Shown: positions 1-35,700 of the stretch, in pieces
Layout: every line of letters starts with the position of its first letter
Numbering within the stretch: position 1 is the first letter of the stretch
Source: Hormiphora californensis
Lineage: Eukaryota > Animalia > Ctenophora
Length of the DNA stretch: 64,000 nucleotides
Assembly: GCA_020137815.1 (NCBI GenBank)
Contig: CM035358.1
Location: 2,852,001-2,916,000 of the forward strand
Direction: 5' to 3'
Translations under genes and position numbers: made by a program
Notes under the pieces: generated by a model
Seen by the model: only the letters and a program-made list of their open reading frames with translations
What the model was told of the DNA's origin: nothing
Database searches by the model: none

Positions 1-3000
1 AAAATAATGGCACAGTATTATTGAGACAGAGCTCTGTGTGACACTGAATAGTGAATACTGGTCGGGTACTGATCATTCATTACCATAATTGTAGTATAGG
101 GTTTCATTTAGTACTGTGTTTATAGGTTACTAGGGTACGTGCTTTTAGTAACAACATTAACAGCATAATGAGCCCTAGCAGCAGTTATCTGCTGACCACC
201 TGTCTCTCTTCCTTTCTCTCTGCCCTCTTCGCTCGGTCCCCTCTTTATCTCCCTATATTATCATAAAATATGCATAAGATATTCTGAATAATAAGATAAT
301 AATCTAATAACCTAGCCAATAACATTTTCTTAAGAAGTATACTACGCTCTGTGCGTGTTTTAATAGTACATTCCGTGTTTGCTACTACATTAACATGCAG
401 GGAATTACTTGCTAATAAACTTCTCCTGCCACTTCCCCAAACCACTTTACTTTTTTAATTTTCTCTCATTCTCCTCACCTCTCTCATTCCCTCACCTTTC
501 TCTCTCTTTCTCTCTCCCCTTCGTGTACATGTCGGACATTTGAATGAATTTGTCCAGAAGGTGAAAGGAAAGCGCGGCTAGTAGCCGAGCTACTTAGCCT
601 TCTGCAGAGGGCAGAGAGAGAGGGAGGGAGAAATACAGGGAGAGAGAAATGCGGAGAGAAAGAATAATGAGACTAGGTTCACACAGTAGGTATACACGTA
701 GACTTGTATGCAGATGGGCTTATGTATAATTTATGTACGATGAAACGGTCTTATAAGAGAGGGGGGGGGTTAACCTTTGTGTACGGTGTTTACATACTGA
801 TAAATTTTCAAAGGAAATATGCGATCTAATCTGCTGCATCTTTCCGGACCGTTATGTGGATCTTTATGTGGATTTATCTACATTTTAGTGAGCTAGAGGG
901 TGAAGATATGAAATGAGTTGTATAGACAAAATATACTCACCACACAGGACATACACACACGCCCAATCAAAGTGCAAGCCACACCGCTACTGAACTAACA
1001 CGCCGAGAAAAATAGGAGTGGAGAGAGAGAGAGAAAGAGAAAGGGAGTGAGAGAGACAGAGAGAGAAAAAAAACCTCTTGAATATGAACACCCAACCCAC
1101 ATCCGTATGCGTTTTCAATGCATTGTATGTCTGAAACTACTGTCTAAAAGGCATAGAGGAGGGGAGTGGGGAGGGATATACAGGACAAAGGGGAGTAGTC
1201 TTGAGAGATAATAAAATTGCGGTCCATTATCGATAAGTACAAACCACATAAAACACTTTAAATACCGGCGATAAAACGCACAAAGGGTTATCTTACTAAT
1301 GGCACCACTAAGTGGATCTCAATCAAGCTTAGACCACGAACAGATGATATATCTTTGATTTATCGTTGATATGTCACGTCCATTATATATGTCTTAAAAT
1401 CTAGTGACCATTAAAAACACTAAACAGTACACATACAGCAATATTTTACCAAATTGGAAGCAGCAGTTACACTCACCGAAATGGCGAGAGGTTGAGTACA
1501 ATAATCCTCGGTCGTTTGTAAGTTTTGGTCGTCAAAGGAGGGACCATACTTGGCGGGTGGAGCAAGCCATTTTGCAACAAAATACAACGAGGGGTCCTGT
1601 GCTAAATTCGACTCAAGAGACTTTCCGCCTCCTGCACATGCGGCTGTTTTCATCCAACGCGACTTTTGCATAGCTTGATTCAAAGTGACGCGCACGCTCG
1701 CTTATTTTAATGCGTCGCGCTATTTTGCAGTGAAATATAAAACATCCCGCGGCGTCCGCATCGGCATTACGAAATATTTCTTCGTATCGTTTTTTCTTCA
1801 GGAGTGGTGGATTGTGAAGCCACTCTTGTTGTGTCCCTCTCCCACCTTCTCCGTGTGCCAACACAACACTATACTGGTACACCCGCACTGCACAGTCGTG
1901 TTCCATTTTTTCCGATTTTTTCTTCCGTTTTCCGGATTTTTTGAAAAAATCTCAAAATGAAAACAAAATTCAGGTTCTTCAGTTGCAAAGCGCTGCCTTA
2001 TCCCGCTATCGGGGGCCAGCAATGTTTGCCAAGTTCTTCAGACAATCTGGCATTTCACCACAACCCACAGTCACGAAGAATAAGGTAATAGCAACCTCTG
2101 AGTCCTGTCACGCCCTTTCTGTCGTCACCAGACCCCGTTTGGCGTATGCAGTGCAGTCTGCAGGTCGGTGCCGGCAAGCGTTAAAATCTGGGTGTTTCGT
2201 GAGTGCTGACAAACGGGTTTTCAGGTTTTGGACTAAAGTAGGGTTTGGATTGGGGTTAGGCCTTGACATTTCTTACCAGATAAACTTTGAATTAGCCAAA
2301 ACGGTTGAGTGGTTTGGCGGTTAGAGCCATTTTAGTGAATAGACAGAATCAGATAGAATCAACTTTTTTGGCAGTGCGCAGTGCGCACTGCGCACCTGTA
2401 AACAGGCTACCAAACACCCAGATCGTAACGGCGCACGTCGGTGCCACCAGACAGGCCAACTCATAGATGATAGAACGACTACAGGAGCCAGGAGGCGTAC
2501 TACGTCACGGTCATACCATTATCCCAAAATCGGTTGATCAGCCGACGAAAAAACTTTCCGACCAGTTGAATTGTTCACATTTTCTTTTTACACAGTTTCA
2601 AGCGACTCAACAGACCAGTGGGCAGTGGGAAAGACTTTTAGTTCATAGAGGGTTCCTAGATATACTTCTTCTGAAAAAGCTGTTTTCTTTCTCAACAAGT
2701 TTTCTTTCTTAATTCGATGTAGAAAGAGTTTAAATGAGGTAAACTTTGTTGCTAATTTTCTATTTCTGCCATAATAATTATTATCCTTCCTATAAACTCC
2801 CGTTGTAAGGCCCCCAGACTATAAAAAGTGTTTTGAGTTACTAAGTTTAGAGGCAGTCCTTTGTTCTCTAGAATAACGCGTCTGTCCTATGCCGGAAACA
2901 ACTAAACAATGGGATAAAACACGCTCTCCAGTCTCGGCTAAACACAGTCTCAGTTTATATTTGTTTCTTCATCTTGCATCAACATCTTTATCAGGCTAGG

Positions 3001-3186
3001 GATCTACTAACTTTAACACCTTTTTCCCCTCTGAAGTGAAAGGGCCTTATTGTGAACAATGCCGGTGGTAGTCCATCATTAACACGTCTTGTAACTAAAG
3101 ATTTTTCACACATATCAATGGCACCTTTAGTCAGAACAGCTATTTAAAAAGCCCCTCCCATCTCTCACACATTCACCGATTCAACA

Positions 3187-4224
3187 ATGAAGATAGCTGT
3201 AGTGATCATTGGAGCTCTTCTCCTTATCTCCGTTTCTGCACGACGTGGTGGTGGCGGTGGTCACGATGGTGGCAGGGACAGGGACGACCAAGACCATCAT
3301 GATCGGGACAGGGACGACCAAGACCGTCCTCGACCACCCCCTCGAGGCCCCATGATCAAGAACCCCAGGAAGGTGAAAGCGGAACAGGGAGGAAAAGCCA
3401 TTCTGAAGTTCGCCATCATGGGAGGAAAGCCCCTGGACGCCACCAAGGTTTCTATCGTCAAAATGCTGCCAGGTGGATTTGAAACTGAGAGCAGGTTTGA
3501 GTTCAAACTAGCTGAACTTGACTCCGAGGATATCGAGGGACGGTTCGAGCATGTTTTGGTGGGAAAGGCTGCTCTTGGGAATGTGACATGTAACGATCAG
3601 GCCCGATACAGGATCAAGTACACTTGTGGAAAGAAGGAGGAGGAGGAGGAGGAGATGTTCGAGCGAGATGTGGATGTGGAGAAATCCGGACATGGAGGTC
3701 GTCAGGGACACTTTGGGTTGATGGTTGAGGATTGTCCCCGACCCACCCGGGAACCCCGATATTTGAAGCGAGAGTCTGTTTCCGCACCTTCCATCCGAGT
3801 GAGGCCAGTCCACCAGGGACAAACTGATGGAAAGGTTATCGTCGACTTCTGGATCTACGGAAATGACGCTCTGGACGAGGACTGCTGTCAGCATTGTTAA
3901 ACTTGGCAGGGATAAGACTGAGGAGGAATCTCGATTTGTCTTCAAGCTGGCCACCGAGGAGACGGATGGAGGAAGGTATTCTGTCATCATGAAGGGACGA
4001 GCTGCAATGGATAACCTTGCTTGTGAGGACATGTCCAGGTATCTTGTAAATACGGTGAGTACGCTTCTGGAAACTTCTCTGTACTCATTGTGGATTGTAT
4101 GGAGCCTCGACCTACTCGGGAGCCTCGACCTACCCGGGAGCCTCGACCTACTCGGGAACCACGACCTACTCGGGAGCCCCGACCTGCAGAAAAGCGAAAT
4201 CCTGGCCCTGAATTCTGGTATTAA
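3187..4224 (+). CDS. Intronless secreted protein with two internally repeated Ig-like domains and an (EPRPTR)n tail; two compensating frameshifts in this sequence
   Basis: Signal peptide MKIAVVIIGALLLISVSA. Domain 1 (LDATKVSIVK..ESRFEFKLA..GKAALGNVTCNDQARYRIKY) aligns with domain 2 (LD/RTAVSIVK..ESRFVFKLA..GRAAMDNLACEDMSRYLV/KY) only with a +1 shift near 3877 and a -1 shift near 4049. Frame 1 resumes at 4051 and ends at TAA 4222-4224. TATA-like tatttaaaaa near 3141. The Ig-like call is by eye. Confidence 0.65.
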
Positions 4225-4907
4225 TCTGCTTGCGTAAAATTGAGATTCCTTGTTGTTATTTTCTACAGATCTTATAAAACGATCATGCATCACACCAAGT
4301 ACCTACCACATTGCTACATCATACAAGTACCATATCATTCATGCCATCACTATAATAACGGGGTACCGCATCAATCATATTTCTGATGAATTTCATTGTC
4401 GTGGCGGCATTTTCTTGATCTTAGCGAATGTATGTACATCACACTATAATACACTGGGTTTATCGGTATGAAATAATATGCCTTATAAGAGGGGCATGAT
4501 ATATTGGAAGGTGCAAGCCAGCTAAGTAAACTGGAATTAGGAGAGAATTGGGGGCGTGTCTGTAGTGTGGCATCATACCTCTCTCTCTCCTTGTATCATA
4601 CCTCTCTCTCCTTGTATTGTATTGTGACAATGTGACCTTCCCCCTCTGAGCGTGTACTGATTTAGTGAACATTATATGTTGCCTTAGAGCATATCTTTAG
4701 TCCACTTCTTCGATTTGTTTCTGCATCTTAGTCCTTAGATAGTCTCATTTTGGCTCATTCACATGCTTCTTGAATCTTGATTCATCATAGTTCGTCTCCC
4801 CGAGTCCCAAATGCTTTTTGAAGCTTGGTTCTAAGCCCTAAGGTAGTTGTCGGGTTGTTCGTGATCCTAATTCTGGTACCATCATAGTGTTTTGAGCTGG
4901 TGGGGTC

Positions 4908-7900
4908 ATGGAGGCTGGTTACTTCATAGGACTCTTCAGAGACAACCTTCAACGTAATAAGATTAGTGCTAGGACCAGTATCATTCTAAACATGTTATAT
5001 TCTGCATGTGACCCAGTCAGGGGTAAACATCTCCAATTCTGAAACACATTCCTAATCTTCAGAGGCTCTACCGAAATACAAGACTATCGATGGAAGTATA
5101 GAACGACTCAACCGTAGAACATTAGCTACCATATTCTTTGTTCTAAGTAAGCAAACCACGTGTGTTCAAGTTGACACTTTCTGTAATTTACTAACTGATA
5201 CCATGTTCAAGTCGAGACTGTAATTTACTAACTGATACCATGTTCAAGTTAGAATTAGAATTCACTGACTAAATTGTGAAAACTAACTTGATTTAGTAGG
5301 GACTGATCTACTAAATCTAACCTCAGGTGTTTTAAGTATTGAGGATGGGTTGCTAGGTAACAGGATAACATGTATGGGTTTTACTATTTTTAAAAACGAA
5401 GATTTTGTTAGGGTAAGTTTCTACACAATCCAAGAACAGTTTCTTTAATCGCGAATTCATCATTACATTGGCTTGTTCTCTACCTTCATTTACTTGCATG
5501 TAGATTCATATATTAAAATCCACTATGGTATGAGCTGTCCCACTGTGCAGGATTATTGTTGGACCCAGGGTATATTTACTAACCGGTACGCCTACGACAG
5601 ACCTCCCGATTCCATGCCTGCACCCGGTGTCATACCCTGTATCAGGTAATAAGATCATTGTTTTTATATTATATGTGAGCTAGAGCTGTCACAATATATA
5701 CTGCGGTATAGGCAAGCAAACACTCGTCGTGTAGATTAGTACACTCATTTGTACTCTAAAACATGTTTGAAGTTGTGAAACACACATGGTGGTATAAAGC
5801 TAAATTCAGCTGGGATTACCCTTGGATCCATCGCATCCTATTCTCGCTCTGCGAATAATAGGATCCCGGTCCGTTGAGAGCAAGAACTCACGTGCGCGCG
5901 ATATTAAAGCACGTTTTCAGCAGATCGCGCGTGATAGACCGTTTTTGGAGACCTTTTTAGCTGACCTAGCACTACTCAAAGGTCAATTATGGCCTCATTT
6001 TGCATCGTGATGAATCGGCGGGTATTTTCCCATACTCACAAGGCCATGACGATTCCCCCAGTACCCGCAGATTGTCCCAGGACCGAGTAGGAGCTTGCAG
6101 CCAGGTCTTAAATTAATTGCTCATGTTTAGCGTCAATTTTGACCCACTATTCCTCAAATGCTGATACTCGCGGGTATTTTCCGTAAAACTAGAGACAATT
6201 ATCTGCCAGGAGCAACAAACGAGATGCAAATCGGTTCGGTAGTTCCTTGCAGCCAGGTCTTTGAAAAAGTTTGCTCTAAAATCAATAACGCGCCGGAGGC
6301 CTAGATGTGAGATCGATCTCACTCAGGCATCAATGTGGCCAAGGATTACCCAATCTTGCCTTGCTTAACCCTCTTTCCGCGTGCTCTGCGGGTTTGAACA
6401 ACAAAACAAACCCTATCTAACTGCAGGTCTATAGACGGGTACAAGTGTTCCAATGAGGAACAAAAGAAGCAGATAGTGTTTCATCTGTGGTACCAGTGGG
6501 TTCCAATGTTCTTTATACTCAGTGCTGGCATCTTCTACCTTCCTTATATCAGTAAGTAACAACCAGGAACCGACCGGACCAAGTAAACAATCAATCAGAG
6601 CTCGTTATTTAGGTCACGTGACTGGTTATCAGCCAATCAGGGACCAGTATTTCCTGATTCGGTTCTATTTTGTTGTTAGTGTTGCCACGTGAAATGTCTC
6701 AACTCACGAGAGAGGAGGTACAACCTAAACTACATATATTTCAAGATCCAACTCATTTCAGTAACCCGTGGATCCATAGTGGGTAAATTGTCACGGTTTG
6801 TGGACAGCCTCCAGAAACCAGATGATTTAGTTGGGGAGGGAGGATCGGCAGAACGGCTGGGGAAACTTCTCTACTATTGGATCGATATGAATCTTCAAAA
6901 ACGGTTCGTGATTGCCTTATATTTGTCCAAACATTTTCGATCTGAAAGGCCCGGTACATCGATGGCCAAACGTGCTATTGTTTGTTTAGACTGTGATACC
7001 ACGCAATTCCAATTTGCAATTCCAACCTTTCAGATACCAGGCGAATCCCTTTGTTCAGTTTACAGTTCCATTTGTTCAGCTCCTAACTAAAGCGGCCTAT
7101 CTAGCTGTTTCTACTGGACATTTCTATGTAACAGGTAGGTTTGAGTTTGAACCTTCGAGGGGTATCTAAATGATGGTATAATATCACTCGCGAACTGTTC
7201 TTCAAACAGCTGTCATATCATAATTGGTAACCTAATCTGTCTTCTACCTACTCTGTGACAGAGGCTCTGTCTCCTACCTCTACATTATCTTTCTGATTTT
7301 GTACTATTTCTCCTACATCATCTCTCTTGCCCCAACTACGAACACAATCGTCTCTCTTGCCCCCAACTACTAACGTACAATCGTCTCTCTTGCCGGCCCA
7401 ACTACTAACACACTCATCTCTCTTGCCTTCAACTACTAACGTACAATCCTACAGGTCTGATGTTTCCCATTGGAAATTACTACAGGCTGGGTATAACCTG
7501 GCACATTGCCGAGACTGATAACTACACTCATGTGGGTGATGTCTTGTTCCCCAAAATGGCCGGGTGTCTGGTCCAGAAGTACACCAGTTCAGGTCAGTCA
7601 AAACATTCTGAGTCCCTGTCACACTTCTTTTTATTTTTTGTTGTTGTCAACTACACGAACTACGACGATATATTAAATCTGTGAAGTTAGACCACCGTTT
7701 TCTATCCTTTGAACGACTAATAAGTAACCAAGCCCCTGTATGTCACTGTGTACTGCACTTTGAACGGCGTGTTGATATTGATTTCCTAATGCAGGTATAA
7801 GCCAGGAGGCGGGTATGTGTAACCTAGCTCCTAACGTAGTGTTCCAGTATCTCTTCCTGATAACATGGTGGTGTGTTGCAATCATAACCGGTGAGTTGTT

Positions 7901-9566
7901 TTGGCAGGAACCGACCGAAACAAGTAAACAACCAATCAGAAATCGTTATATAGGTCACGTGACTAGTTATCAGCCAATCAGGGACCAGTGTTTCCTGATT
8001 CGATCGGTTCCTGTTTTTTGACAGCTGCTGTTTGAACGAAACAAGAGTTTGTAACACTGGCATCTGATTCTTGTTGTGATGGGTTGACCAATACCCTTCC
8101 ATTAGTCATATAGTTTTTACTAGCGAAGTAACTACCCTCCGACCTCTTTTCAGCTCTCAATCTGCTGAGTCTACTAAAGGGTATAGGAGAGTTGTTTGTC
8201 CATCAGTTTATCTACAAGATCTTTAAACACGACCTAGATGTATCGTATGATAGGAGCAATGGCCAAAGTAGCACAGAATACAGAGGTAAACAATCATACT
8301 ACTTACTAAGCAAATTGTGTGACAGAGATCACCTAGCAACTACACTTGCACGTGCAATTATTAGAGAGACCTGGAGATCTCTCTCCCGGTTGCAGTTGGG
8401 TACCAAGGGGAAATTCAATTCTGCACGTGCATTCTTTTACTTCTGTCCTGATGTCTAGCTCTTCCACCCCAAGCGCTATTCGGCAACGGTTATATGGGTC
8501 CAGAAGATCTGCTGCTGTCAGAGAGCAGGCTAGAGAATATGACAGATTACGCCAACGTGTTCAAGTGAGCCAATCAACGACTACGGATAGCTTTACCCAA
8601 CGTCGCCCAAGGGTGATTACTCCAGTCGAATAAAGAAATCTCCGAATCGGCTACGTAGCGGCCAAGTTTTCACGTGATGAATTTCTGGAACAGCACTGCA
8701 TCAGGCACCTCCATGACATTGATCTCTTAAATTCGGACCTTGACATTGTCAGGAAGCCCAGAGCGTACAACAACATGAGTAGGGAGAAAGTGAGAGATAG
8801 GCTAGGAACGGATGGTGCAGGTGATGTCAGCGTTCCCTAATCCAGTTACCATTTCCCCGAAATTCGCCCGTAGGGCGAACGGGCCTACTAGTAGTTTATT
8901 ATGGGATTTAGTGTGGGAGGATAATAATTGATATTTAATTCCATGATTACATATTTAATTGTCCGTATCACCGAATACTTTCACCATTACAAAAATCTCA
9001 CTGATAAAGATTTCAATTTCAGGTCCAACAAAGGATGATACTCAGATAATATTCGCGTATTATGACCTCAGTTCCCACATTATGTTTCACCTAATTTCTG
9101 ACAACGTTCATCCTGCTATTCTCGCTCTCGGGCTTAGGTATGTGTTCGCCGTTCGGATGACCGTTCTTGGACTCGCTATTTTGTAATGGGTTGCATTGGT
9201 CATTGAGTATGGTCTACCCGCTCTTATCCACACACGACATGGCGAGAGAGTGCAGCGTAGGAGGGGGTAGAGACAAGGGGGACCTTGTACCCAAGGTTGG
9301 TCAATGGTTGCAATGTTTAATCTCATTTCCTTCCATACAGGTTCACAGCAGAGCGGATACGAGACGAGATGGGACGAGATGAGGAACTTCGTCAATTCGT
9401 TATGTCGAGAATTCACGAACATGGTGGTCACAATGGAGAGAGTTCTGGTGGTAACCATGGCAACCAACCAGGGGGCAGGGGGATATCGTTAAATGCAGTC
9501 CGTAAGGGCTATAAATCGTTGTTACCAAAGACTAAGAAATTGAAAGACGGTTCGACGCAGTTGTAG
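4908..9566 (+). CDS. inx: Innexin (gap-junction/pannexin superfamily), paralog 1, 12 coding exons
   Basis: Exons 4908-4953, 5063-5146, 5327-5412, 5551-5645, 6427-6551, 6762-6903, 7034-7134, 7455-7592, 7795-7890, 8154-8285, 9023-9137, 9341-9566 join in frame with GT-AG introns. Motifs ITC..DYCWTQG, HLWYQWVP, LFPKMAGC, MCNLAPNVVFQYLFL. Confidence 0.93.
5822..6342. mobile_element. Non-autonomous DNA transposon remnant in innexin-1 intron 4
   Basis: Flanked by a 9-bp direct repeat ggattaccc (5813-5821 and 6343-6351), short inverted ends (ttggatcca / tggccaa), and an internal ~150-bp duplication. Confidence 0.4.
6564..6665. mobile_element. ~105-bp hAT-like MITE, copy 1 (right end degenerate)
   Basis: caggaaccgacc...gtcacgtgac...cctgattcggttc; near-identical copy at 7905-8013. 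Confidence 0.75.
7318..7450 (+). repeat. 4 x ~33-nt tandem repeat containing branch-point consensus TACTAAC, directly upstream of the acceptor at 7453-7454
   Basis: Unit tcRtctctcttgcc(n)caactactaacRYacaa; three copies carry a perfect TACTAAC. Confidence 0.85.
7905..8013. mobile_element. ~108-bp hAT-like MITE, copy 2
   Basis: TIR caggaaccga...tcggttcctg; degenerate 8-bp TSD (tgttttgg / ttttttga); same terminal sequence as the 21098-22424 element. Confidence 0.8.
8294..8891 (+). mobile_element. Non-autonomous Helitron-like element in innexin-1 intron 10
   Basis: 5' A|TCATACTAC; 3' hairpin gcccgt-agggcga-acgggc followed by CTAG|T; sits between A and T with no TSD; contains an Arg-rich ORF fragment. 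Confidence 0.55.
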
Positions 9567-10011
9567 TAGTGTGTTAATAGTTTTAGATGGTATATTTATT
9601 TGATTGTTTTGAGCTGGTTTTAAGACGAAATATATAATTATTAAGATGTATGTAATTTTGTTTCTATTTTTATTCCAACTTCACCCTCTCCAAAACTATT
9701 TGTATACTTCTTTGTGCCCGAAATAGAACACATGTGCACCACGTGTGTGGGCATGTTTGTTTATCTAATGTCTCTACTCAAATCACAAATGTGACACAGC
9801 ATTTATCCCTCACATCCCCCACAACAGACAGCAGCTTGTTACCACGCGGTGTGTGTGTCGACATTTTGTCTTGTACCTCTGCAGTCTGGGTCTTGTAGAT
9901 ACCAGCTCCTGCCCCAGCTTCAAGCCTGCAGTAGATCTACCCTCCTACAATTGCGTCTTGAGGTGATATCCCGTGATCTTCCCTGCTTGCTGATCATATA
10001 ATATCAGCGTG

Positions 10012-13000
10012 ATGGGTGTCACTTCTCACTACAGGGGAGATGGGTTCTTTACTGGAACTTTCAGGGACATTACTAACAGTAAGTACTTTCTTTGTGAACC
10101 ACTTCCTAAGCTGGGTCTTGCTCTTTACTTTGGCGGCGCAAACCTAATCTGAGCGCACTGTTGCACGCTCACTGCGTCGCTCAGATTAGATTTTGAAACG
10201 GGGTCTAACGGCTTTGTTGTAGCTTTCTGTGTCTCTTTTCCATATCGTTCTCTCCAGGTATCCAGAGGCTAAGTAACCGGTTCCAGTCCATTGACAGCAA
10301 CTTGATGGATTTGTTTTGCGATGAGATCTTCCCTGCTATGATGCTGGCATGTTCTATCATCTCACTGTCTCGGGAGCTACTTGGCAGTAGGCTGACCTGT
10401 ACTGGAAATGAGGCCTTCAAACGGCAATTCGTGAAGGTAATAGTCAGCAATTAGCCAATTATGTGTTAATTGAATCATGATCATACATCCAAATAATGTC
10501 CAACTAACACATGAACTGTGATCATACATCCAACAAGTAAACAGTTTGTCTACATTCGATCTATACATTTCAGGATTATTGCTGGTCTCAGGGGTTGTTC
10601 ACTAACAGATACGCCTATGATCTCCCTGTATCTCAGTTACCTGCTCCTGGTGTTGTACCCTGCATCAGGTGAGGGAACTTAATAAACCTGATATATCACA
10701 CGTAGTATTCAGTAGTCACCGTAACCTTCCATTGTTCAGACAGTCTCGTTCAGATTTTCGGCCTGATCCATTGAAAAACGTCAGTATAACAGTCAAACTC
10801 ACACCACCTCCCCTAGGATAGAAGACAACTACCAGTGCTCACCTAACATCCCCCTCCCTCTAGGATAGAAGACAACTACCAGTGCTCACCTAACATCCCC
10901 CTCCCCCTAGGATAGAAGACAACTACCAGTGCTCACCTAACATCCCCCTCCCCTCTAGGATAGAAGACAACTACCAGTGCTCACCTAACATCCCCCTCCC
11001 CTAGAATAGAAGACAACTACCAGTGCTCACCTAACATCCCCCTCCCCTAGGATAGAAGACAACTACCAGTGCTCTCCTAACATCCCCCTCCCCTCTAGGA
11101 TAGAAGACAACTACCAGTGCTCTACCTAACATCCCCCTCCCCTAGGATAGAAGACAACTACCAGTGCTCACCTAACATCCCCCACCCTCTAGGATAGAAG
11201 ACAACTACCAGTGCTCACCTAACATCCCCCTCCCCTCTAGGATAGAAGACAACTACCAGTGCTCACCTAACATCCCCCCTCCCCTCTAGGATAGAAGACA
11301 ACTACCAGTGCTCACCTAACATCACCCTCCCCTCTAGGATAGAAGACAACTACCAGTGCTCTCCTAACATCCCCCTCCCCCAGGATAGAAGACAACTACC
11401 AGTGCTCTCCTAACATCACCCTCCCCCAGGATAGAAGACAACTACCAGTGCTCTCCTAACATCACCCTCCCCTCTAGGATAGAAGACAACTACCAGTGCT
11501 CACCTAACATCCCCTCTCCCCTCTAGGATAGAAGACAACTACCAGTGCTCACCTAACATCACCCTCCCCTCTAGGATAGAAGACAACTACCAGTGCTCTC
11601 CTAACATCACCCTCCCCTCTAGGATAGAAGACAACTACCAGTGCTCACCTAACATCACCCTCCCCTCTAGGATAGAAGACAACTACCAGTGCTCACCTAA
11701 CATCACCCTCCCCTCTAGGATAGAAGACAACTACCAGTGCTCACCTAACATCCCCCTCCCCTAGGATAGAAGACAACTACCAGTGATCACCTAACATCCC
11801 CCTCCCCTAGGATAGAAGACAACTACCAGTGCTCACCTAACATCACCCTCCCCTAGGATAGAAGACAACTACCAGTGCTCACCTAACATCACCCTCCCCT
11901 CTAGGATAGAAGACAACTACCAGTGCTCACCTAACATCACCCTCCCCTCTAGGATAGAAGACAACTACCAGTGCTCACCTAACATCCCCCCCCCTCTAGG
12001 ATAGAAGACAACTACCAGTGCTCACCTAACATCCCCCTCCCCTAGGATAGAAGACAACTACCAGTGCTCACCTAACATCACCCTCCCCTAGGATAGAAGA
12101 CAACTACCAGTGCTCACCTAACATCCCCTCTCCCCTAGGATAGAAGACAACTACCAGTGCTCACCTAACATCCCCTCCCCTCTAGGATAGAAGACAACTA
12201 CCAGTGCTCACCTAACATCACCCTCCCCTCTAGGATAGAAGACAACTACCAGTGCTCACCTAACATCCCCCTCCCTCCTAGGATAGAAGACAACTACCAG
12301 TGCTCACCTAACATCACCCTCCCCTAGGATAGAAGACAACTACCAGTGCTCACCTAACATCCCCTCTCCCCTAGGATAGAAGACAACTACCAGTGCTCAC
12401 CTAACATCCCCCTCCCCTAGGATAGAAGACAACTACCAGTGCTCACCTAACATCCCCCTCCCCTAGGATAGAAGACAACTACCAGTGCTCACCTAACATC
12501 CCCTCCCCTCTAGGATAGAAGACAACTACCAGTGCTCACCTAACATCCCCTCTCCCCTAGGATAGAAGACAACTACCAGTGCTCACCTAACATCCCCCTC
12601 CCCTCTAGGATAGAAGACAACTACCAGTGCTCACCTAACATCCCCCTCCCCTAGGATAGAAGACAACTACCAGTGCTCACCTAACATCCCCCTCCCTCTA
12701 GGATAGAAGACAACTACCAGTGCTCACCTAACATCCCCCTCCCCTCTAGGATAGAAGACAACTACCAGTGCTCACCTAACATCCCCCTCCCCTCTAGGAT
12801 AGAAGACAACTACCAGTGCTCACCTAACATCCCCCTCCCCTCTAGGATAGAAGACAACTACCAGTGCTCACCTAACATCCCCCTCCCTCTAGGATAGAAG
12901 ACAACTACCAGTGCTCACCTAACATCCCCCTCCCTCTAGGATAGAAGACAACTACCAGTGCTCACCTAACATCCCCCTCCCCTAGGATAGAAGACAACTA

Positions 13001-16000
13001 CCAGTGCTCACCTAACATCCCCCTCCCTCTAGGATAGAAGACAACTACCAGTGCTCACCTAACATCCCCCTCCCCCTAGGATAGAAGACAACTACCAGTG
13101 CTCACCTAACATCCCCCTCCCCTCTAGGATAGAAGACAACTACCAGTGCTCACCTAACATCCCCCTCCCCTAGGATAGAAGACAACTACCAGTGCTCACC
13201 TAACATCACCCTCCCCTCTAGGATAGAAGACAACTACCAGTGCTCACCTAACATCCCCCTCCCCTCTAGGATAGAAGACAACTACCAGTGCTCACCTAAC
13301 ATCACCCTCCCCTCTAGGATAGAAGACAACTACCAGTGCTCACCTAACATCCCCCTCCCCTCTAGGATAGAAGACAACTACCAGTGCTCACCTAACATCC
13401 CCCTCCCCTAGGATAGAAGACAACTACCAGTGCTCACCTAACATCCCCCTCCCTCTAGGATAGAAGACAACTACCAGTGCTCACCTAACATCCCCTCCCC
13501 TCTAGGATAGAAGACAACTACCAGTGCTCACCTAACATCCCCCTCCCCTAGGATAGAAGACAACTACCAGTGCTCACCTAACATCCCCCTCCCCTAGGAT
13601 AGAAGACAACTACCAGTGCTCACCTAACATCCCCCTCCCCTCTAGGATAGAAGACAACTACCAGTGCTCACCTAACATCCCCCTCCCCTAGGATAGAAGA
13701 CAACTACCAGTGCTCACCTAACATCCCCCTCCCCTAGGATAGAAGACAACTACCAGTGCTCACCTAACATCCCCCGCCCTCTAGGATAGAAGACAACTAC
13801 CAGTGCTCACCTAACATCCCCCTCCCCTAGGATAGAAGACAACTACCAGTGCTCACCTAACATCCCCCTCCCCTCTAGGATAGAAGACAACTACCAGTGC
13901 TCACCTAACATCCCCCTCCCCTAGGATAGAAGACAACTACCAGTGATCACCTAACATCCCCCTCCCCTCTAGGATAGAAGACAACTACCAGTGCTCACCT
14001 AACATCCCCTCTCCCCCAGGATAGAAGACAACTACCAGTGCTCACCTAACATCCCCACCCTCTAGGATAGAAGACAACTACCAGTGCTCACCTAACATCC
14101 CCTCTCCCCTAGGATAGAAGACAACTACCAGTGCTCACCTAACATCACCCTCCCCTAGGATAGAAGACAACTACCAGTGCTCACCTAACATCCCCCTCCC
14201 CTCTAGGATAGAAGACAACTACCAGTGCTCACCTAACATCCCCACCCTCTAGGATAGAAGACAACTACCAGTGCTCACCTAACATCCCCCTCCCCTAGGA
14301 TAGAAGACAACTACCAGTGCTCACCTAACATCCCCCTCCCCTAGGATAGAAGACAACTACCAGTGCTCACCTAACATCCCCCCCCCCCTAGGATAGAAGA
14401 CAACTACCAGTGCTCACCTAACATCCCCTCTTTCCTAGGATAGAAGACAACTACCAGTGCTCACCTAACATCACCCTCTCCCCTAGGATAGAAGACAACT
14501 ACCAGTGCTCACCTAACATCACCCTCCCCTAGGATAGAAGACAACTACCAGTGATCACCTAACATCCCCTCTCCCCCTAGGATAGAAGACAACTACCAGT
14601 GCTCACCTAACATCACCCTCCCCTAGGATAGAAGACAACTACCAGTGATCACCTAACATCACCCTCCCCTCTAGGATAGAATACAACTACCAGTGCTCAC
14701 CTAACATCACCCTCCCCCAGGATAGAAGACAATTACCAGTGCTCACCTAACATCACCCTCCCCCCTAGGATAGAAGACAACTACCAGTGCTCACCTAACA
14801 TCCCCCTCCCCTAGGATAGAAGACAACTACCAGTGCTCACCTAACATCCCCCTCTCCCCTAGGATAGAAGACAACTACCAGTGCTCACCTAACATCCCCC
14901 TCCCCTAGGATAGAAGACAACTACCAGTGCTCACCTAACATCCCCACCCTCTAGGATAGAAGACAACTACCAGTGCTCACCTAACATCCCCCTCCCCTCT
15001 AGGATAGAAGACAACTACCAGTGCTCACCTAACATCACCCTCCCCTCTAGGATAGAAGACAACTACCAGTGCTCACCTAACATCCCCCTCCCCTCTAGGA
15101 TAGAAGACAACTACCAGTGCTCACCTAACATCCCCCTCCCCTCTAGGATAGAAGACAACTACCAGTGCTCACCTAACATCCCCCTCCCCTCTAGGATAGA
15201 AGACAACTACCAGTGCTCACCTAACATCACCCTCCCCTCTAGGATAGAAGACAACTACCAGTGCTCACCTAACATCCCCCTCCCCCTAGGATAGAAGACA
15301 ACTACCAGTGCTCACCTAACATCCCCCTCCCCTAGGATAGAAGACAACTACCAGTGCTCACCTAACATCCCCCTCCCTCTAGGATAGAAGACAACTACCA
15401 GTGCTCACCTAACATCCCCCTCCCTCTAGGATAGAAGACAACTACCAGTGCTCACCTAACATCCCCTCTCCCTAGGATAGAAGACAACTACCAGTGCTCA
15501 CCTAACATCCCCACCCTCTAGGATAGAAGACAACTACCAGTGCTCACCTAACATCACCCTCCCCTCTAGGATAGAAGACAACTACCAGTGCTCACCTAAC
15601 ATCACCCTCCCCTCTAGGATAGAAGACAACTACCAGTGCTCACCTAACATCCCCTCTTTCCTAGGATAGAAGACAACTACCAGTGCTCACCTAACATCCC
15701 CCCTCCCCTAGGATAGAAGACAACTACCAGTGCTCACCTAACATCCCCACCCTCTAGGATAGAAGACAACTACCAGTGCTCACCTAACATCACCCTCCCC
15801 TCTAGGATAGAAGACAACTACCAGTGCTCACCTAACATCCCCCTCCCCTAGGATAGAAGACAACTACCAGTGCTCTCCTAACATCCCCACCCTCTAGGAT
15901 AGAAGACAACTACCAGTGCTCACCTAACATCCCCTCTCCCCTAGGATAGAAGACAACTACCAGTGCTCACCTAACATCCCCTCTCCCCTAGGATAGAAGA

Positions 16001-19000
16001 CAACTACCAGTGCTCACCTAACATCCCCACCCCCTAGGATAGAAGACAACTACCAGTGCTCACCTAACATCCCCCTCCCCTAGGATAGAAGACAACTACC
16101 AGTGCTCACCTAACATCCCCCCCCTAGGATAGAAGACAACTACCAGTGCTCACCTAACACCCCTCCCCCTAGGATAGAAGACAACTACCAGTGCTCACCT
16201 AACATCCCCTCCCCCAGGATAGAAGACAACTACCAGTGCTCACCTAACATCCCCCACCCCTCTAGGATAGAAGACAACTACCAGTGGCTCACCTAACATC
16301 CCCCTCCCCCCCATTAGATAAAGACAAACTACCAGTTGCTCATCCTAACAATCACCCTCACCCATCTAGGATAGAAAGCAACTACGCAGTGGCTTCACCT
16401 AACATCACCCTCCCCATCTAGGATAGAAGACAAACTACCAGTGCTCACCTAAACATCACCCTCCCTCTAGGATAGAAGACAACTACCAGTGACTCCACCT
16501 AACATCACCCTCCCTCTCTAGGGGATAGAAGACAAACTACCAGGCCCACCTACATCCCCTTTCCCTAGGATAGAAGAAAAAGACCATAAAAAAACAACCA
16601 GTGTCACTAACATCCCTCCCAGCGATAGACAACTACCGTCTCCCAATCTGTTATGTACTTCTTTTGACGTCTCACCGACCTCTAAGGATTACGGAGAACG
16701 CTTAAATATCTCTTGGTCATCCGTGAATGTCCTCCCAGGGACTAGAGCTAACTCTGACACCCAGTTTCCCTCCCTGGAGTGAAAAAACCATGTGTCAGGT
16801 TTTTATCCCCCAGTTAAACCTAGCCGTGCTCACAATGAACAACCGTTCCTGTGAAAATAACACCGTTAGAGCTACATTGAGGTAAACATAATGTGCAAAC
16901 AACTGAACACATTGGTAGAGTCAAGTTAAGTGACTCACTAACATCCCCTCTCCCCCTAGGATAGAAGACAACTACCAGTGCTCACCTAAACACCCCTCCC
17001 CCCTAGGATAGAAGACAACTACCAGTGCTCACCTAACATCCCCCTCTCCCCTAGGATAGAAGACAACTACCAGTGCTCACCTAACATCCCTTCTTTCCTA
17101 GGATAGAAGACAACTACCAGTGCTCACCTAACATCACCCTCCCCTAGGATAGAAGACAACTACCAGTGCTCACCTAACATCCCCCTCCCCCCTAGGATAG
17201 AAGACAACTACCAGTGCTCACCTAACATCACCCTCCCCTCTAGGATAGAAGACAACTACCAGTGCTCACCTAACATCCCCCCCCCCCTAGGATAGAAGAC
17301 AACTACCAGTGCTCACCTAACATCCCCCCCCCCTAGGATAGAAGACAACTACCAGTGCTCTCCTAACATCACCCTCCCCTAGGATAGAAGACAACTACCA
17401 GTGCTCACCTAACATCCCCTCTCCCCTAGGATAGAAGACAACTACCAGTGCTCACCTAACATCACCCTCCCCCAGGATAGAATACAACTACCAGTGCTCA
17501 CCTAACATCCCCCTCCCCTAGGATAGAAGACAACTACCAGTGCTCACCTAACATCCCCCTCCCCTAGGATAGAAGACAACTACCAGTGCTCACCTAACAT
17601 CCCCCTCCCCTAGGATAGAAGACAACTACCAGTGCTCACCTAACATCCCCCTCCCCTAGGATAGAAGACAACTACCAGTGCTCACCTAACATCCCCCTCC
17701 CCCTAGGATAGAAGACAACTACCAGTGCTCACCTAACATCCCCACCCCCTAGGATAGAAGACAACTACCAGTGCTCACCTAACATCCCCCTCCCCTAGGA
17801 TAGAAGACAACTACCAGTGCTCACCTAACATCCCCCTCCCCTCTAGGATAGAAGACAACTACCAGTGCTCACCTAACATCCCCCTCCCCTAGGATAGAAG
17901 ACAACTACCAGTGCTCACCTAACATCCCCCTCCCCTAGGATAGAAGACAACTACCAGTGCTCACCTAACATCCCCCTCCCCTAGGATAGAAGACAACTAC
18001 CAGTGCTCACCTAACATCCCCCTCCCCTAGGATAGAAGACAACTACCAGTGCTCACCTAACATCCCCCTCCCCTAGGATAGAAGACAACTACCAGTGCTC
18101 ACCTAACATCACCCTCCCCTCTAGGATAGAAGACAACTACCAGTGCTCACCTAACATCCCCCTCCCCTAGGATAGAAGACAACTACCAGTGCTCACCTAA
18201 CATCACCCTCCCCTCTAGGATAGAAGACAACTACCAGTGCTCACCTAACATCCCCCTCCCCTAGGATAGAAGACAACTACCAGTGCTCACCTAACATCAC
18301 CCTCCCCTAGGATAGAAGACAACTACCAGTGCTCACCTAACATCCCCTCTTTCCTAGGATAGAAGACAACTACCAGTGCTCACCTAACATCCCCACCCTC
18401 TAGGATAGAATACAACTACCAGTGATCACCTAACATCCCCTCCCCTCTAGGATAGAAGACAACTACCAGTGCTCACCTAACATCCCCACCCTCTAGGATA
18501 GAATACAACTACCAAGGCTCTCCTAACATCCCCCTCCCCTAGGATAGAAGACAACTACCAGTGCTCACCTAACATCCCCCTCCCCTAGGATAGAAGACAA
18601 CTACCAGTGCTCGCCAGATCAAGCGGAAAAGCAGAAAGTCTTTCACTTGTGGTACCAGTGGGTTCCTTTCTATTTCTTTCTTAGCGTCATGGTTTTCTGG
18701 GCTGTAACCCATGGTAAATTAAATCAGTTGGACAGACTTGCTTATTTAAAAAAACAACTACCACACGTCTTGTGTATAATGGTCGTTCCTAAGTGATGTA
18801 TGCAGGAGAATTAGGCATTTGTTCAGTATTTTGATAAGATTCTCCAGTCAATAACCGTCCCCTGCTCTCCCAGTATTCAGTGCCAAGTGTCGCCTCTCCA
18901 AGATGAAATCTCACCTGCTGGAGAAGAGTCTCTCTGATGATGATGAGTTGCATCTCTGGTTGCGGCACTACATGAGACGAAGGTAGATAGGGATGTTTTA

Positions 19001-22000
19001 CTTGATTTTAATCTTGTTTGTTTTACAAATTAAAAACAACGGAAGTTTTTAAGGTCTATTCTTGTTTGTTTTATTGAGTCGCAAGAGAATCTCATCTTGT
19101 TTAGACCTTCCTTCTTCCCCGACAATACTTGTTGAGTAAGACTGTAAGTCAAAACTGTAGTTACAAACAGTACAAACAAAAAGCCCTTTGTTTTCAGGAT
19201 AGATCAGTCCCTGGTTGCCCAGTACAGTATACCCCTTTCTTTTCAGGATAGATCAGTCCCTTGTTGCACAGTACAGTTTACCGCTTTCTCTTCAGGATAG
19301 ATCAGTCCCTTGTTGCACAGTACAGTATACCCCTTTCTTTTCAGGATAGATCAGTCCCTAGTTGCCCAGTACAGTATACCCCTTTCTTTTCAGGATAGAT
19401 CAGTCCCTAGTTGCCCAGTACAGTATACCCCTTTCTTTTCAGGATAGATCAGTCCCTAGTTGCCCAGTACAGTATACCCCTCTCTTTCCAGGATAGATCA
19501 GTCCCTAGTTGCTCAGTACAGTATACCACTTTCTTTTCAGGATAGATCAGTCCCTAGTTGCCCAGTACAGTATACCCCTTTGTTTTCAGGATAGATCAGT
19601 CCCTAGTTGCCCAGTACAGTATACCCCTTTCTTTTCAGGATAGATCAGTCTCTAGTTGCCCAGTACAGTATACCCCTTTGTTTTCAGGATAGATCAGTCT
19701 CTAGTTGCCCAGTACAGTACACCCCTTTGTTTTCAGGATAGATCAGTCTCTAGTTGCCCAGTACAGTACACCCCTTTGTTTTCAGGATAGATCAGTCCCT
19801 AGTTGCCCAGTACAGTATACCCCTTTGTTTTCAGGATAGATCAGTCCCTAGTTGCCCAGTACAGTATACCCCTTTGTTTTCAGGATAGATCAGTCCCTAG
19901 TTGCCCAGTACAGTATACCCCTTTCTTTTCAGGATAGATCAGTCCCTTGTTGCACAGTACAGTATACCCCTTTCTTTTCAGGATAGATCAGTCCCTAGTT
20001 GCTCAGTACAGTATACCACTTTGTTTTCAGGATAGATCAGTCCCTAGTTGCTCAGTACAGTATACCACTTTGTTTTCAGGATAGATCAGTCCCTTGTTGC
20101 CCAGTACAGTATACCCCTTTCTTTTCAGGATAGATCAGTCCCTAGTTGCTCAGTACAGTATACCCCTTTCTTTTCAGGATAGATCAGTCCCTTGTTGCAC
20201 AGTACAGTATACCCCTTTGTTTTCTGCTGCGGAGGAGTGTATTCTGTCTGGTGGCGCTAATCCAGTTCATAATTACAAGTAAAACAATTATTGAGAGTCA
20301 TTTTGTGAGATACGTCGGACCCCGATTTACCGGGATGCTCGGACGGAAGGATTTTGTCCATTAAATTGGGTGCCGACTGATATATCAGAAGTCATTAAAA
20401 TTAAAGCCACATTATTATCTAACTCTCTCCAGTCTCCAATTTAAAATATTACTTATCTCCCCAGAGTTTATGTTTCCCATCGGGGATTTCTACCAGCTGG
20501 GCCTGAAATGGCACATTCCAGAGACTGATAACTACACTCATGTGGGTGATGTCTTGTTCCCCAAAATGGCCGGGTGCCAAATACTCAAATACGGGTCTTC
20601 AGGTAAGATTTCTGTGAGAAATAGGTTCACAAATCACTTTTAGTTTCAGGTTGGACATGTGATCCGAACAAGGCCAGGTGCATTGATTCAGAAGTCTGAA
20701 CCTGATGCTTCATTGGCCTACATTCGTCACACTTTCCTAATCGCGTTTATGTAACGCGCGGGTCATTTGACCAACTGGAAGTGGAACTGACTCTTGTCAA
20801 ACATGCGTGACGCGCAGACACCCCTCCCACTTATGACACACACCCACACGTCAATACGTCATGTCAACACTCAACATTGTCTAGCCGATACTGGCTTACC
20901 CCCCGGGGTCCTTTACCTACAGTTATTGCTGCTAGCAACATTTCTCTTCATATGACAATTTCTCTCTCAGGAATTATCACTGAAACTGTGATGTGCAGTG
21001 TTGCTCCGAATGTAGTTATCCAGTACCTTTTCCTTCTATCCTACTGGGCTCTACTTTTCGCTATAGGTAATATAAATATCCTTGTCATGGTTAATCCCAG
21101 GAAACGACCGAACCGGGTTTTTTTCCACCGAACCGAACCGAACCGAATTTGAAAAACTTTTTTACCGAACCGAACCGAACCGAACCGAATCGAATTTCGG
21201 TAACCGAACCGAACCGAACCATACAAAACTTTTTCTGTATAAATGTTTCTCTAAAAAGTCATGGAGAGCACCGATCAAGGTATTGAGAATCATTCTCTGA
21301 AATTTTGTTAAAAAATGTTTGAAAAATTTCAAAGTCAATTTTGTGAAAAAATTTTCAAAGTCAATTTTATCGTAAATTTTCTATGTCAATTTTTGCGTAC
21401 GAATCGTGTTTCGAATCGGCAATGCTATACGGGAATGGTATTGCTACCATTAAACGAACCATGAATCGTGTCTCTCTAAATTTCCTAATTAGATTTGATG
21501 GGGGATCACGTATCAGCACAATCCATCTCGGACCCACTAATTACCAACATCACTCCCGTTTAGCATTGTCGATTAGAAACACGATTCGTATACCATAATT
21601 TACTTAAAATATTTTTCACAAAAAAAATTTCATTTCAGGTAATGATTCTCAATACCTTGATCGATGCTCTCCATGAATTTTTAGAGAAACATTTAATTTT
21701 GTGAAAAAACTTTGTAAAATATTTCAAAGTCAATTTCGGAAAAAAATTTTGCCGTACGAATCGTGTTGCGAATCGGTGATGCTATGCAGCAGTGCTCTCG
21801 CTAATTAGCAGGATTTATTGAAACATGAATCGTTTCCCCTAAACTTCCTAATTAGATTTGATGGGGGATCACGTATCAGCATAATCCATCTCGGACCCAC
21901 TAATTAGCAACATCACTCCCGCTTAGCAATACCGATTCGAAACACGATTCGTACGCAAAAATTGGCATAGAAAATTTTCCATAAAATTGACATTGAAATA

Positions 22001-32794: not shown

Positions 32795-35700
32795 ATGTTA
32801 CTCCGCCGAGGACTGGTCGCTTTGGCGGTGGTTCTAATTCTTGTTTCTTCTCAGTCAACCCGTAAGTAAACAGCAAGAAATCATTTTATTTATCCGAAGT
32901 CGGATTATTTTCATTTTGTGGTTGAATGGCCTGCCCATTTTCTTAAACTGAATTTCACCAATACAAGTAAACTGATCTTTTTAGGTTGGATCACTGTTTC
33001 TGAGTTACCAGGGCCAACAGAAGATGAGTTGAACAAACTCAACGCCAAAGGTCTAAACCCGAATTCTGAAACGTTTCACGTTATGCGATGGAACACAGAT
33101 GGGCAGATTTTTGGAAAACAACACTCAGTCAGCCAAAAATATATAATGTTCCTGGAGAAGAAAGATGGAGAGGCGATTAATATCATCTTTTCTCACAAAG
33201 AAGACCAAGTTACCAGGCTCCTCTGGGATGAAAACAGTATCGAAGAGATCGGTAGTAAAACTTACTGTAGCGATTACATAGCTACAATAGCTACAGTTGA
33301 CTGTTCATCGGCTGAATTCTGGATTGTAGCGAAAAATAAGGACAAAGAACCTTTGAACATCTACTGTGGTTCCCAGTTAAAGTATCAAGTTAAAAGTGCA
33401 GGTACTGATTGTATTTTTGAAAAGCATCCAGACGACACGTACTTCCATTCTTCACTGAGCAATCACTATGTGTATTGGAGTGTACTTGAATTAGGTACGT
33501 AACACAAAATATATAAACTAAACTATTGAGTTTGTACATAAAACATTAGAATTATTAAAATATTCTGTAATCTGTATTTACATAAAACGTATTACATGCC
33601 ACGCTGAGTATTCAAATACACTATACTATTTCTCAGATTCGAGCTGCTACACAAATGGTCAATATGTGTACGCTAAATCTGGAACTGGAGAATGTAAATC
33701 ATGTCCGAGTGTGAGCAAGCCCTTTCCGATAATCTACAAGGGAGTTCAAGAAGCTTACAACTGTCTGAGTTCAACCCATCGACCGCTTGTTGGTCCCAGC
33801 TTTCACATTGGTAAGTCTTAACTAAACAGTTCTACCTAAATACGCCTAAATAAAATAGTTTTATATATCACGATCAGTTTTATTTTTATTTACCTGAGTT
33901 GCTTTTTTTCAGGATGGGCACATGCTGATGCCTGTGAAACATCGAACTGTGCAATCACCTTGAAAGATTATAATACGATTACCTTCGAGATTTCTGATCC
34001 AAACCAAAACAATCAAGTTATCAAGTTTTATGGCGGCTCGAATACGTTTCTTCAAGTTTTGGTTAAATTTAGCTCGACAACTGCAGAGGTGTACTTTGGT
34101 TGTAATATAGCTGTGAACGATATTCCTTCTACAGCAATAGCTAAAGAATACATTAATAGTGGAATGATTGCTGGATGCTCAACTACTCTCAAGATCCAAC
34201 TTGACCGAACAAATCCTGGGTATCCCGTGCTGCAGTTCGCTTGTGATGATAACTGGGACGAGACTTTTGTTTCACATCAGATTGCCTGTATCAACCTGAC
34301 AAGTTTCTCCTTCTCGACAGACATGATTTACACCGGTTATACTGAACAAGGTAAGCAGTGTGTGGGATTTAACTTAAATTTAATTTACTTAAACCATTCC
34401 TCGCCAGAGTCTACGAACATGCAGTGTGGACTGGGCTATGGTTTGTCTGGATCCCAAGTCTGTATGATGTGCACTGAAGGGCATTATAGTGATACAGTAG
34501 ACGACCAGGCGTGTAAAGTATGCCCTGAAAACAGTGTTAGCAATTCTGATTTCTCAGGATGCGGTAAGTTAAAATGGAAATAACCTTGCGTCGAACTAAG
34601 ACCCGTATTTGTTTCTCGAAAGTCTAAATCCTTAATATTTATATAGTTAACTTTATTCAGTTTGTAATGCGGGATATGGACCAACTGATAGCGGTACACA
34701 CTCTAGCGATACTACTCAATGTTCATGTGGAGAAGGATATTATATTTCACCGGGAGAAGCAACAGTATCACCAGGAGCAGCAGATTGCACTAAGTGTCCA
34801 TCAGGAGCAACAAACAATACTGATTTTACTAAGTGTGGTAAGTTCGAAGACAATACTGATTTTACTAAGTGTGGTAAGTTCGAAAACAATACTGATTTTA
34901 CTAAGTGTGGTAAGTTCGAAGACAATACTGACTTTACTAAGTGTGGTAAGTTCGAAAGCTAGTGTATTTAGGTACTTACCAGTAACTTGAAACTCGTTTA
35001 GTTTGTGAAATGGGATATGCAGGAACCGATAGCAACGCTTGTACAGCATGTGTCGCTGGTTCATACTCGGCCGCTACTGGTTCAACTCAATGTACCAAGT
35101 GTGCCTACGGATCTATTTCAATTTCACCAGGAGCAACATGGTGCACTCAGTGTCCGTCAGGAGCAACCAACAATGATGATTTTACTGAGTGTGGTAAGTT
35201 TGAAAGAGTGAGACTTTTCTTTTCATATCAGTGACTTGAAACTCTTTTAGTTTGTGCAGCGGGATATGCAGGAACCGATAGCAACTCTTGTACAGCCTGT
35301 GACGCTGGTTCATACTCGGACGTTACTGGCGCAACTCAGTGTAAAACTTGTGACACTGACTACGTGTCAACTTCATCAGGAGCAACAAGTTGTACCGAGT
35401 GTACAAAAGGAGCAACTAACAATGATGTTTTTACTGAGTGTGGTAAGTGTTTAGGCAGGAAAGCACAACTTAGATAATTAACACACATTTTACACGACAT
35501 TTTCCCTGCCCGGATGAATGCCTTGCAAAAAGGCATAGCAGGGTTAGAATTTGAAAATGACATAATAATTAAATGTTCACCGTTACCTGCTACGCAACTG
35601 CTCCTTCATAAACCACTTCAATGACACGTTTTCATGAAATGTTTGGCGCATATTGTGGGGTTAATGCAACTTTCCTGACAGTGGTCATCCGACATATTCC

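Follow-up and report, generated by a model that had tools for sequence, protein, structure and literature searches.

We analyzed a 64,000-nt window of the genome of the ctenophore Hormiphora californensis (assembly GCA_020137815.1, contig CM035358.1, positions 2,852,001 to 2,916,000 of the forward strand); "the window" denotes this whole stretch, and all coordinates below are counted from its first letter. Two innexin genes lie in tandem on its + strand, gene A at ~5060–9150 and gene B from 10012 on, and the boundary between intron 5 and exon 6 of gene B is occupied by a minisatellite of 49-nt units, which is the subject of this report. P0001, a 350-residue protein from a public collection, is 87–100% identical to the exons of the window (tblastn) and matches the Pfam Innexin family (PF00876) with 72.6 bits at a cut-off of 25. 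A gene A exon reaches 26.7 bits at the same cut-off, and single-exon open reading frames (ORFs) of gene B fall short of it, as fragments would, with 20.9 and 17.6 bits. The nearest named relatives are two innexins of Mnemiopsis leidyi, with 38% and 31% identity. The exon structure of gene B that an earlier note had proposed agrees with the GT..AG joints of RNA contigs from environmental sea-water libraries (RNA-type runs X7, X8, X9, X10, and X13), which give the exon limits 18874–18982, 20178–20278, and 20465–20602; for the join between exons 4 and 5, these contigs display a loose exon 4 end before 18873.

Tandem Repeats Finder delimits the array at 19184–20224, with a period of 49, 21.2 copies, 95% matches, 0% indels, and a score of 1823, a regularity far beyond chance. 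Each unit is composed of the last 14 nt of intron 5 (CCCTTT[C/G]TTTTCAG) and the first 35 nt of exon 6. CAG/GATAGATCAGTC (the slash marks the splice boundary) is present in 21/21 units at a spacing of exactly 49 nt, and CAGGATAGATCAGTC likewise occurs in 21/21 units of this register, first at 19195 and last at 20175. The earlier claim of a 49-nt array with 21 acceptor AGs, each heading a copy of the first 35 nt of exon 6, is thus borne out both by the register print, in which all 21 units fall into line, and by the RNA joints described below. Compared with 215 nt in the single-copy state, intron 5 now measures 1195 nt. A blastn search with two units as query matched nothing outside 19184–20224 in the 64-kb window; the array is therefore not a dispersed satellite. 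At the DNA level, both edges of the array (left, 19032–19205; right, 20194–20340) are spanned with no difference by contigs of run X1, from which the assembly was probably made, and contigs of run X5, from a second sample of the same organism, fall on 8/12 array bins.

The 21 units comprise 13 distinct sequences. Unit 16 and the working unit 21 agree at each of their 49 nt, units 4–6, 11–12, and 13–15 form runs of identical neighbors, and adjacent units differ at 2.05 positions, compared with 2.70 for random order or all pairs (permutation p = 0.003). This likeness of neighbors shows an ongoing turnover of units. Every unit reads CAG/GATAGA and has no donor GT after the AG, the feature that would mark a recursive splice site.

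Four contigs from 4/5 RNA-type runs join exon 5 to the array. The X10 contig passes from 18982 directly to 20178, covers all of exon 6 to 20278 with 0 differences and continues into the first 14 nt of exon 7; the 441-nt X7 contig extends through exons 5-6-7-8, with at least 100 nt on the sides of each joint and 0 differences in 103 nt of exon 6. Both contigs are unambiguous and show that the AG at 20176–20177 is used in RNA. The X9 contig probably reports the same joint: it was aligned at unit 3, the exon part of which equals that of unit 21, and its loose end ..GTTTTCTGC is found only in the exon interior. The fourth contig, from X8, is discussed further below. X13 and two long X9 contigs contain only 30-nt pieces at conserved innexin motifs and stem from paralogues. 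No contig of run X12, from a possible relative (organism B), aligned here, which weighs neither for nor against the interpretation. It was also observed that the X7 contig represents a diverged haplotype, with 19 differences in 336 nt of exons 5, 7, and 8 against none in exon 6 (Fisher P = 0.005); exon 6 may here be subject to extra nucleotide-level constraint, or to recent homogenization.

Reading frames were computed from exon 5 into all 21 acceptors. With acceptors 1–19, translation yields RIDQSLVAQYSIPL.FQDRSV....G and terminates after 34 codons (..SG, stop); with acceptor 20 it is frameshifted and terminates in exon 7, and acceptor 21 provides the sole open frame. The arithmetic by which only the distal AG had been considered productive is therefore right.

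Taken together, the array is with good probability a mirage-type minisatellite, likely to have originated by slippage or unequal exchange, in which exon 5 is joined to the last AG and the AGs before it are probably skipped. Old coding sequence, copied into the intron, makes up the exon part of the unit, since ..AQYSIP falls on conserved innexin columns; QYSIPL of exon 6 aligns with EYSVPL, QYRVPA, and QFAIPG of three other ctenophore innexins. As to its beginnings, the 12-nt match between intron end and exon interior pointed out before was found again: CCCTTTGTTTTC is followed by AG at 19184–19195 and by TG at 20213–20224, where it forms the terminal 0.2 copy of the array. The sequence past unit 21 reads CCCTTTGTTTTCTGCTGCGG, and its first 12 nt match the unit start. 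In the reconstructed single-copy state, CCCTTTGTTTTC(AG) and CCCTTTGTTTTC(TG) lie 49 nt apart, and an exchange between them gives exactly this unit. The first duplication would thus be a product of slippage or unequal exchange between these two repeats, and later growth would have proceeded by local duplication and unequal exchange, as the likeness of neighboring units suggests. A decayed 22nd unit to the left of 19184, which would undo the microhomology argument, is not supported: the flank aligns to the unit no better than shuffles do (488/1000 shuffles reach the score), although nine further settings, with fractions of 0.05–0.17, fall short of ruling it out cleanly.

The use of the last AG raises the question of how it is told apart from its copies. 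TACAAAC (19171–19177), located 21 nt before the first decoy AG, is likely the ancestral branch site. Between this old part of the intron and the working AG there are 116 AG dinucleotides, and the AG-free stretch preceding the working AG comprises only 17 nt. On the model of scanning from the branch point to the first AG, as outlined in the part of PMC1431707 drawn on here, these numbers would place the branch point of the working AG in the tail of the preceding unit, and the exon-derived tail of unit 20 (~20152–20162) would supply it. This tail is common to all units, and decoys 2–20 would therefore be complete 3′ splice sites. Given the identity of units 16 and 21, the distinction between decoy and real site lies outside the unit, beyond +35. 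RNA structure offers no sign of hiding the decoys, as the folding of the last four units plus exon 6 does not surpass that of shuffled sequence (z = 0.64), and a search of 9900–21400 for Rfam families returned no match. The last copy is likely chosen by exon definition, through the remainder of the exon 6 body and its donor at 20279. Any decoy-spliced RNA would carry a premature stop and would be removed, or hidden from view, by nonsense-mediated decay. The net effect would be a longer intron 5 and an unchanged protein.

A second acceptor array in gene B, claimed earlier as unrelated to the first, is real. Located at the boundary of intron 3 and exon 4, it is built of 46–48-nt units in which the end of intron 3 (CTAAC, pyrimidine tract, AG) is followed by 27 nt from the start of exon 4. 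A 33-nt reference identifies 152 units, 152/152 preceded by AG, one of which is the real exon 4 start. All 152 contain AG/GATAGAAGAC with a CTAAC motif ~15 nt upstream, and their lengths of 46, 47, or 48 nt vary through the pyrimidine tract. The array has a single 742-nt interruption at 16218–16960, and intron 3 now spans ~7.9 kb. A common origin of the 46-nt and 49-nt units was rejected: their exon-derived middles are unrelated (p = 0.46), and the similarity of whole units (p = 0.001) arises from the shared GATAGA start, the pyrimidine tract, and the AG. A third array, known from DNA alone, is situated on the donor side of an exon in a neighboring gene with Ephrin_rec_like repeats (Pfam PF07699 on paralogous exons). 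Its 36-nt unit consists of the last 22 nt of the exon (..NTDFTKCG) and GTAAGTTCGAAG. Junction duplication hence recurs here, with three arrays in 64 kb, and the donor-side array strengthens the previous suggestion of a recurrent process over a single accident. Coordinates of all features are listed in Table 1.

Table 1 Features of innexin gene B and of the junction arrays in the window.
Feature	Coordinates	Strand	Evidence
49-nt junction-spanning minisatellite	19184–20224	+	Tandem Repeats Finder, register print
Unique 5′ part of intron 5	18983–19183	+	Sequence; X1 DNA contig 19032–19205, no difference
Left copy of CCCTTTGTTTTC (12-nt direct repeat), in the intron-end part of unit 1, then AG	19184–19195	+	Sequence
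20 decoy acceptor AGs, every 49 nt	19196–19197 ... 20127–20128	+	Register print
Working acceptor AG of exon 6	20176–20177	+	RNA joints 18982→20178 in X10 and X7 contigs
Right copy of CCCTTTGTTTTC, inside exon 6, codes PLCF, then TG	20213–20224	+	Sequence
Gene B exons, exon 3 being the third in the list	~10012–10080, ~10260–10436, 10574–10668	+	
Exon 4	18589–18713	+	Joint from the end of exon 3 to 18589 in X8 RNA contig
Exon 5, 109 nt, ..HLWLRHYMRR, ends in phase 2 with AG	18874–18982	+	tblastn, P0001 100% identical; RNA joints
Exon 6, 101 nt, RIDQSLVAQYSIPLCFLLRRSVFCLVALIQFIITK, third transmembrane stretch	20178–20278	+	P0001 100% identical; RNA joint 20278→20465
Exon 7, FMFPIGDFYQLGLKWH...KYGSS	20465–20602	+	Pfam Innexin on ORF; RNA joints 20278→20465, 20602→20971
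Exon 8	from 20971 onward	+	RNA joint 20602→20971
First array of gene B, 46–48-nt units	10813–18612	+	Tandem Repeats Finder, 165.6 copies
Working acceptor AG of exon 4	18587–18588	+	X8 RNA contig: exon 3 → 18589 → unique exon 4
Donor-side junction array, 36 nt x 4	34814–34956	+	Tandem Repeats Finder, sequence, read-through ORF

Both array-bearing exons start with AG/GATAGA (18587–18596 and 20176–20185). This 8-mer is found 156 and 21 times in the two arrays and elsewhere in the 64 kb twice on the + strand and three times on the − strand; its sharing may be a coincidence, or it may be a motif that favors such duplications. The 36 nt of the donor-side unit correspond to 12 codons, and splicing from a later donor would insert in-frame KFE[D/N]NTDFTKCG modules.

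Several points weigh against the reading of a mirage-type minisatellite with passed-over decoys. All RNA is environmental and none derives from the sequenced animal, with exons differing by 0–7% from the assembly, and contigs lose rare isoforms, so that decoys might be used at low frequency. The X9 contig contains one T more than the assembly after CCCTTT (19336 / 20218); this extra T, which would put the remainder of exon 6 out of frame, may stem from an error, an allele, or a paralogue. In the X8 contig, exon 5 is followed by 28 nt of the ..CCCTAGTTGCTCAG.. type, at which point the contig stops. Units 7, 17, 18, and 20 of the assembly are of this type and unit 21 is not; the junction may stem from the use of a decoy or from an allele with two synonymous differences in its last unit. 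The same run yielded a 79-nt unit-to-unit contig with a depth of 18.3, compared with 3.7–4 for exon contigs, which could represent unspliced RNA, decoy use, or DNA. The number of 21 copies is a figure of the assembly, as short contigs and contig depth give no copy number. Finally, an excess of synonymous variants among the decoys does not fit a purely inert repeat.

This excess is apparent in the exon-derived 35 nt, which contain five variable sites among the units: 3/4 four-fold sites of the real frame vary, two of them with three alleles, compared with 2/31 of the other sites (hypergeometric P = 0.006). Counted as variant types in the real frame, 5/7 are synonymous in the 49-nt array and 5/9 in the 46-nt array, and the pooled 10/16 contrast with an expectation of 19–28% (P = 0.00015 to 0.004 for a transition bias of 1–10), in a test devised post hoc on only 16 variant types. 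Such a bias would be accounted for if decoys are not inert, and instead undergo gene conversion or unequal exchange with the working exon start, or if new units are copied from the working junction; selection on the protein would then reach into the intron, and the working acceptor would be whichever copy stands last. The unit type in X8 RNA, which departs from the last unit of the assembly only at the two synonymous sites, and the ongoing turnover among neighboring units are in line with this proposal. The 46-nt array, however, contains TGC→TGA in five units and D→Y in 4, indicating that constraint is at best partial, and one of its synonymous types is the real exon itself. We regard exchange as a possibility, albeit the less likely one. 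In its wider form, namely that junction minisatellites are recurrent and living in this ctenophore genome, that decoys trade sequence with the exon and that the splice site is set by position and not by sequence, the idea is put forward only tentatively.

A functional role of the decoys appears more doubtful. Decoy-spliced transcripts could be destroyed by nonsense-mediated decay, such that the number of repeats tunes innexin output. Consistent with dosage control of this kind, the decoys match the real site almost completely between −14 and +35, with unit 16 fully identical, every decoy product carries a premature stop, two such arrays occur in one gene, and the X8 junction contig and the depth of the X8 unit-to-unit contig may be signs of decoy use. 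Yet the last AG is joined in two unambiguous contigs and probably in a third, and the X8 contig can be an allele. Moreover, the neighboring paralogue, gene A, has no such arrays, and amphioxus mirages are reported, in the sections of PMC3087553 and PMC3902484 used here, not to disturb splicing. We thus consider dosage control unlikely and retain a mirage-type minisatellite with passed-over decoys as the preferred interpretation.

An assembly artefact, either a falsely expanded repeat or haplotypes stacked in tandem, is very improbable. The assembled copy number is accompanied by short contigs only, and in sample S2 (run X5) the intron differs upstream, with a contig that jumps from 19012 to 20167, although contigs of this sort give no copy number. 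On the other hand, the X1 contigs cross both edges with 0 differences and array words are present in two samples, the 13 distinct units display an ordered variant pattern without indels, and the RNA joint skips exactly 1195 nt, even if the DNA in between is not measured thereby. The reverse order, with an older intronic satellite whose last unit supplied the start of exon 6, has only the formal symmetry of the structure in its favor and is just as improbable, as ..AQYSIP aligns with conserved residues of Mnemiopsis and other innexins and the unit is found nowhere else in the window.

P0001 was considered and rejected as mRNA evidence for the exon 5/6 junction: it contains a 63-residue insert, and it may originate from a transcript or from a prediction. 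The insert, residues 193–255, lies between exon 5 and exon 6 (compared with 20166–20279 and 20465–20500 of the window) and is made up of an intron end, of a second, diverged exon 6 copy read in the +1 frame, and of 35 nt from the start of exon 7, after which P0001 resumes with normal exon 6; the join fits a cryptic donor spliced to a CAG/GATAGATC acceptor. The source of P0001 thus seems to carry a more extensive duplication at this junction, unless the model is a prediction artefact. Around the array, segments 19005–19093, 20251–20428, and 21052–21200 (in intron 5, in intron 6, and behind exon 8) reach depths of 10^4–10^5 in both DNA samples, compared with ~300 beside them, and are copies of dispersed, very abundant small repeats.

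Gene A contains a different repeat, 33 nt x 3.9 at 7317–7448, composed of a pyrimidine tract and a perfect TACTAAC. Its end lies 6 nt upstream of the acceptor AG (7455–7456) of the exon 7 homologue; this array multiplies the branch site and the tract, but not the AG. At 6990–7170, the equivalent of exon 6 in gene A seems to need a frame change between ..QFAIPTFQ and ..FVQLLTKAAYLAVSTGHFYVTG, which may reflect a tiny intron, an insertion, or damage to the gene. In an upstream gene, an 18-nt x 4.7 in-frame coding repeat (PRPTRE) at 4101–4185 is another young minisatellite, inside an exon; an earlier domain of the same gene has a single PRPTRE. The window further contains many long (TC)n tracts.

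The intron 5 array constitutes a natural experiment on the choice of 3′ splice sites, with 20 decoys, one identical to the real site over 49 nt, each with its own pyrimidine tract and probable branch site, and with the last site used in the RNA seen. Its sister array provides ~150 decoys, each with a CTAAC motif. Both can be set against models of exon definition, branch-point scanning, and first-come-first-served recognition, in a form that designed minigenes only approximate. They also illustrate that former exon sequence can turn intronic in bulk, in intron 5 as in intron 3, and if decoys and exon do exchange sequence, protein-level selection gains access to an intron. For annotation, gene predictors and short-read assemblies are likely to err at such junctions, of which P0001 may be an example. 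What stands out is the host lineage, the occurrence of two arrays, of which one is extremely large, in a single gene, and the synonymous bias of the variants.

Among known arrangements, NAGNAG and other adjacent alternative acceptors have AGs at most 18 nt apart that rely on a common branch point and pyrimidine tract. As in these, several AGs compete for one exon at the junction described here; unlike them, each AG comes with a whole module and a full tract, 49 nt apart. The Rogers model explains intron gain and growth by tandem duplication across AG/GT proto-splice sites, as summarized in PMC3087553. In agreement with that account, a duplicated splice signal renders exon sequence intronic, here 20 x 35 nt of former exon 6, but no new intron is created and an existing one is lengthened from 215 to 1195 nt.

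Closer counterparts are the human donor-side junction repeats of variable number (VNTRs) covered in the consulted part of PMC1557585, in F7 intron 7 (37 bp, 5–9 copies), IFI6/6-16 (25 pseudo-sites), CBS intron 13, LMNB2, and PDGF. In F7, only the most upstream donor is used. Both types possess an edge unit that spans the boundary and identical pseudo-sites, and in both the site beside the exon body is mostly the one used. The F7 type, however, concerns 5′ splice sites, the most upstream of them being used, whereas here 3′ splice sites are repeated and the most downstream is used, as its mirror image. A unit spanning an exon end and a 5′ splice site, as in F7, is not formed by the 49-nt repeat and is formed by the donor-side array at 34814–34956.

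The nearest match is provided by the mirage minisatellites of amphioxus, described for Adh3, the globins BflGb6 and BflGb9, troponin C, and PGBD5 in the portions of PMC3087553 and PMC3902484 used for this comparison. In BflGb6, the 3′ end of an intron, together with the next exon's 5′ portion, is duplicated 3–6 times, in units of 150–160 bp, with normal splicing. The array of gene B likewise combines an intron 3′ end with the 5′ part of the following exon, but does so in 21 units of 49 nt, compared with 3–6 units of 150–160 bp, and in a ctenophore, not a chordate. Amphioxus mirages and the present array have in common tandem copies of an intron/exon boundary that multiply a splice signal, splicing that is kept, units that evolve in concert, and edges that differ. 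They diverge in that, as far as those portions describe the amphioxus genes, it is particular to gene B that a single gene has two independent acceptor arrays, the larger one counting ~150 units across 7.8 kb, and in that amphioxus mirages are defined by length polymorphism, whereas the arrays described here are known from the copy number of one assembly. For ctenophores, no report of junction minisatellites was found in the literature searched, a coverage that leaves subscription journals aside. A short unit repeated head to tail, a real boundary with its splice signal, use of the site at the edge, and turnover of units are all observed at intron 5. The ctenophore array therefore joins the known class of mirage or junction minisatellites, and extends these repeats, described in lancelets in the sources above, to a ctenophore.

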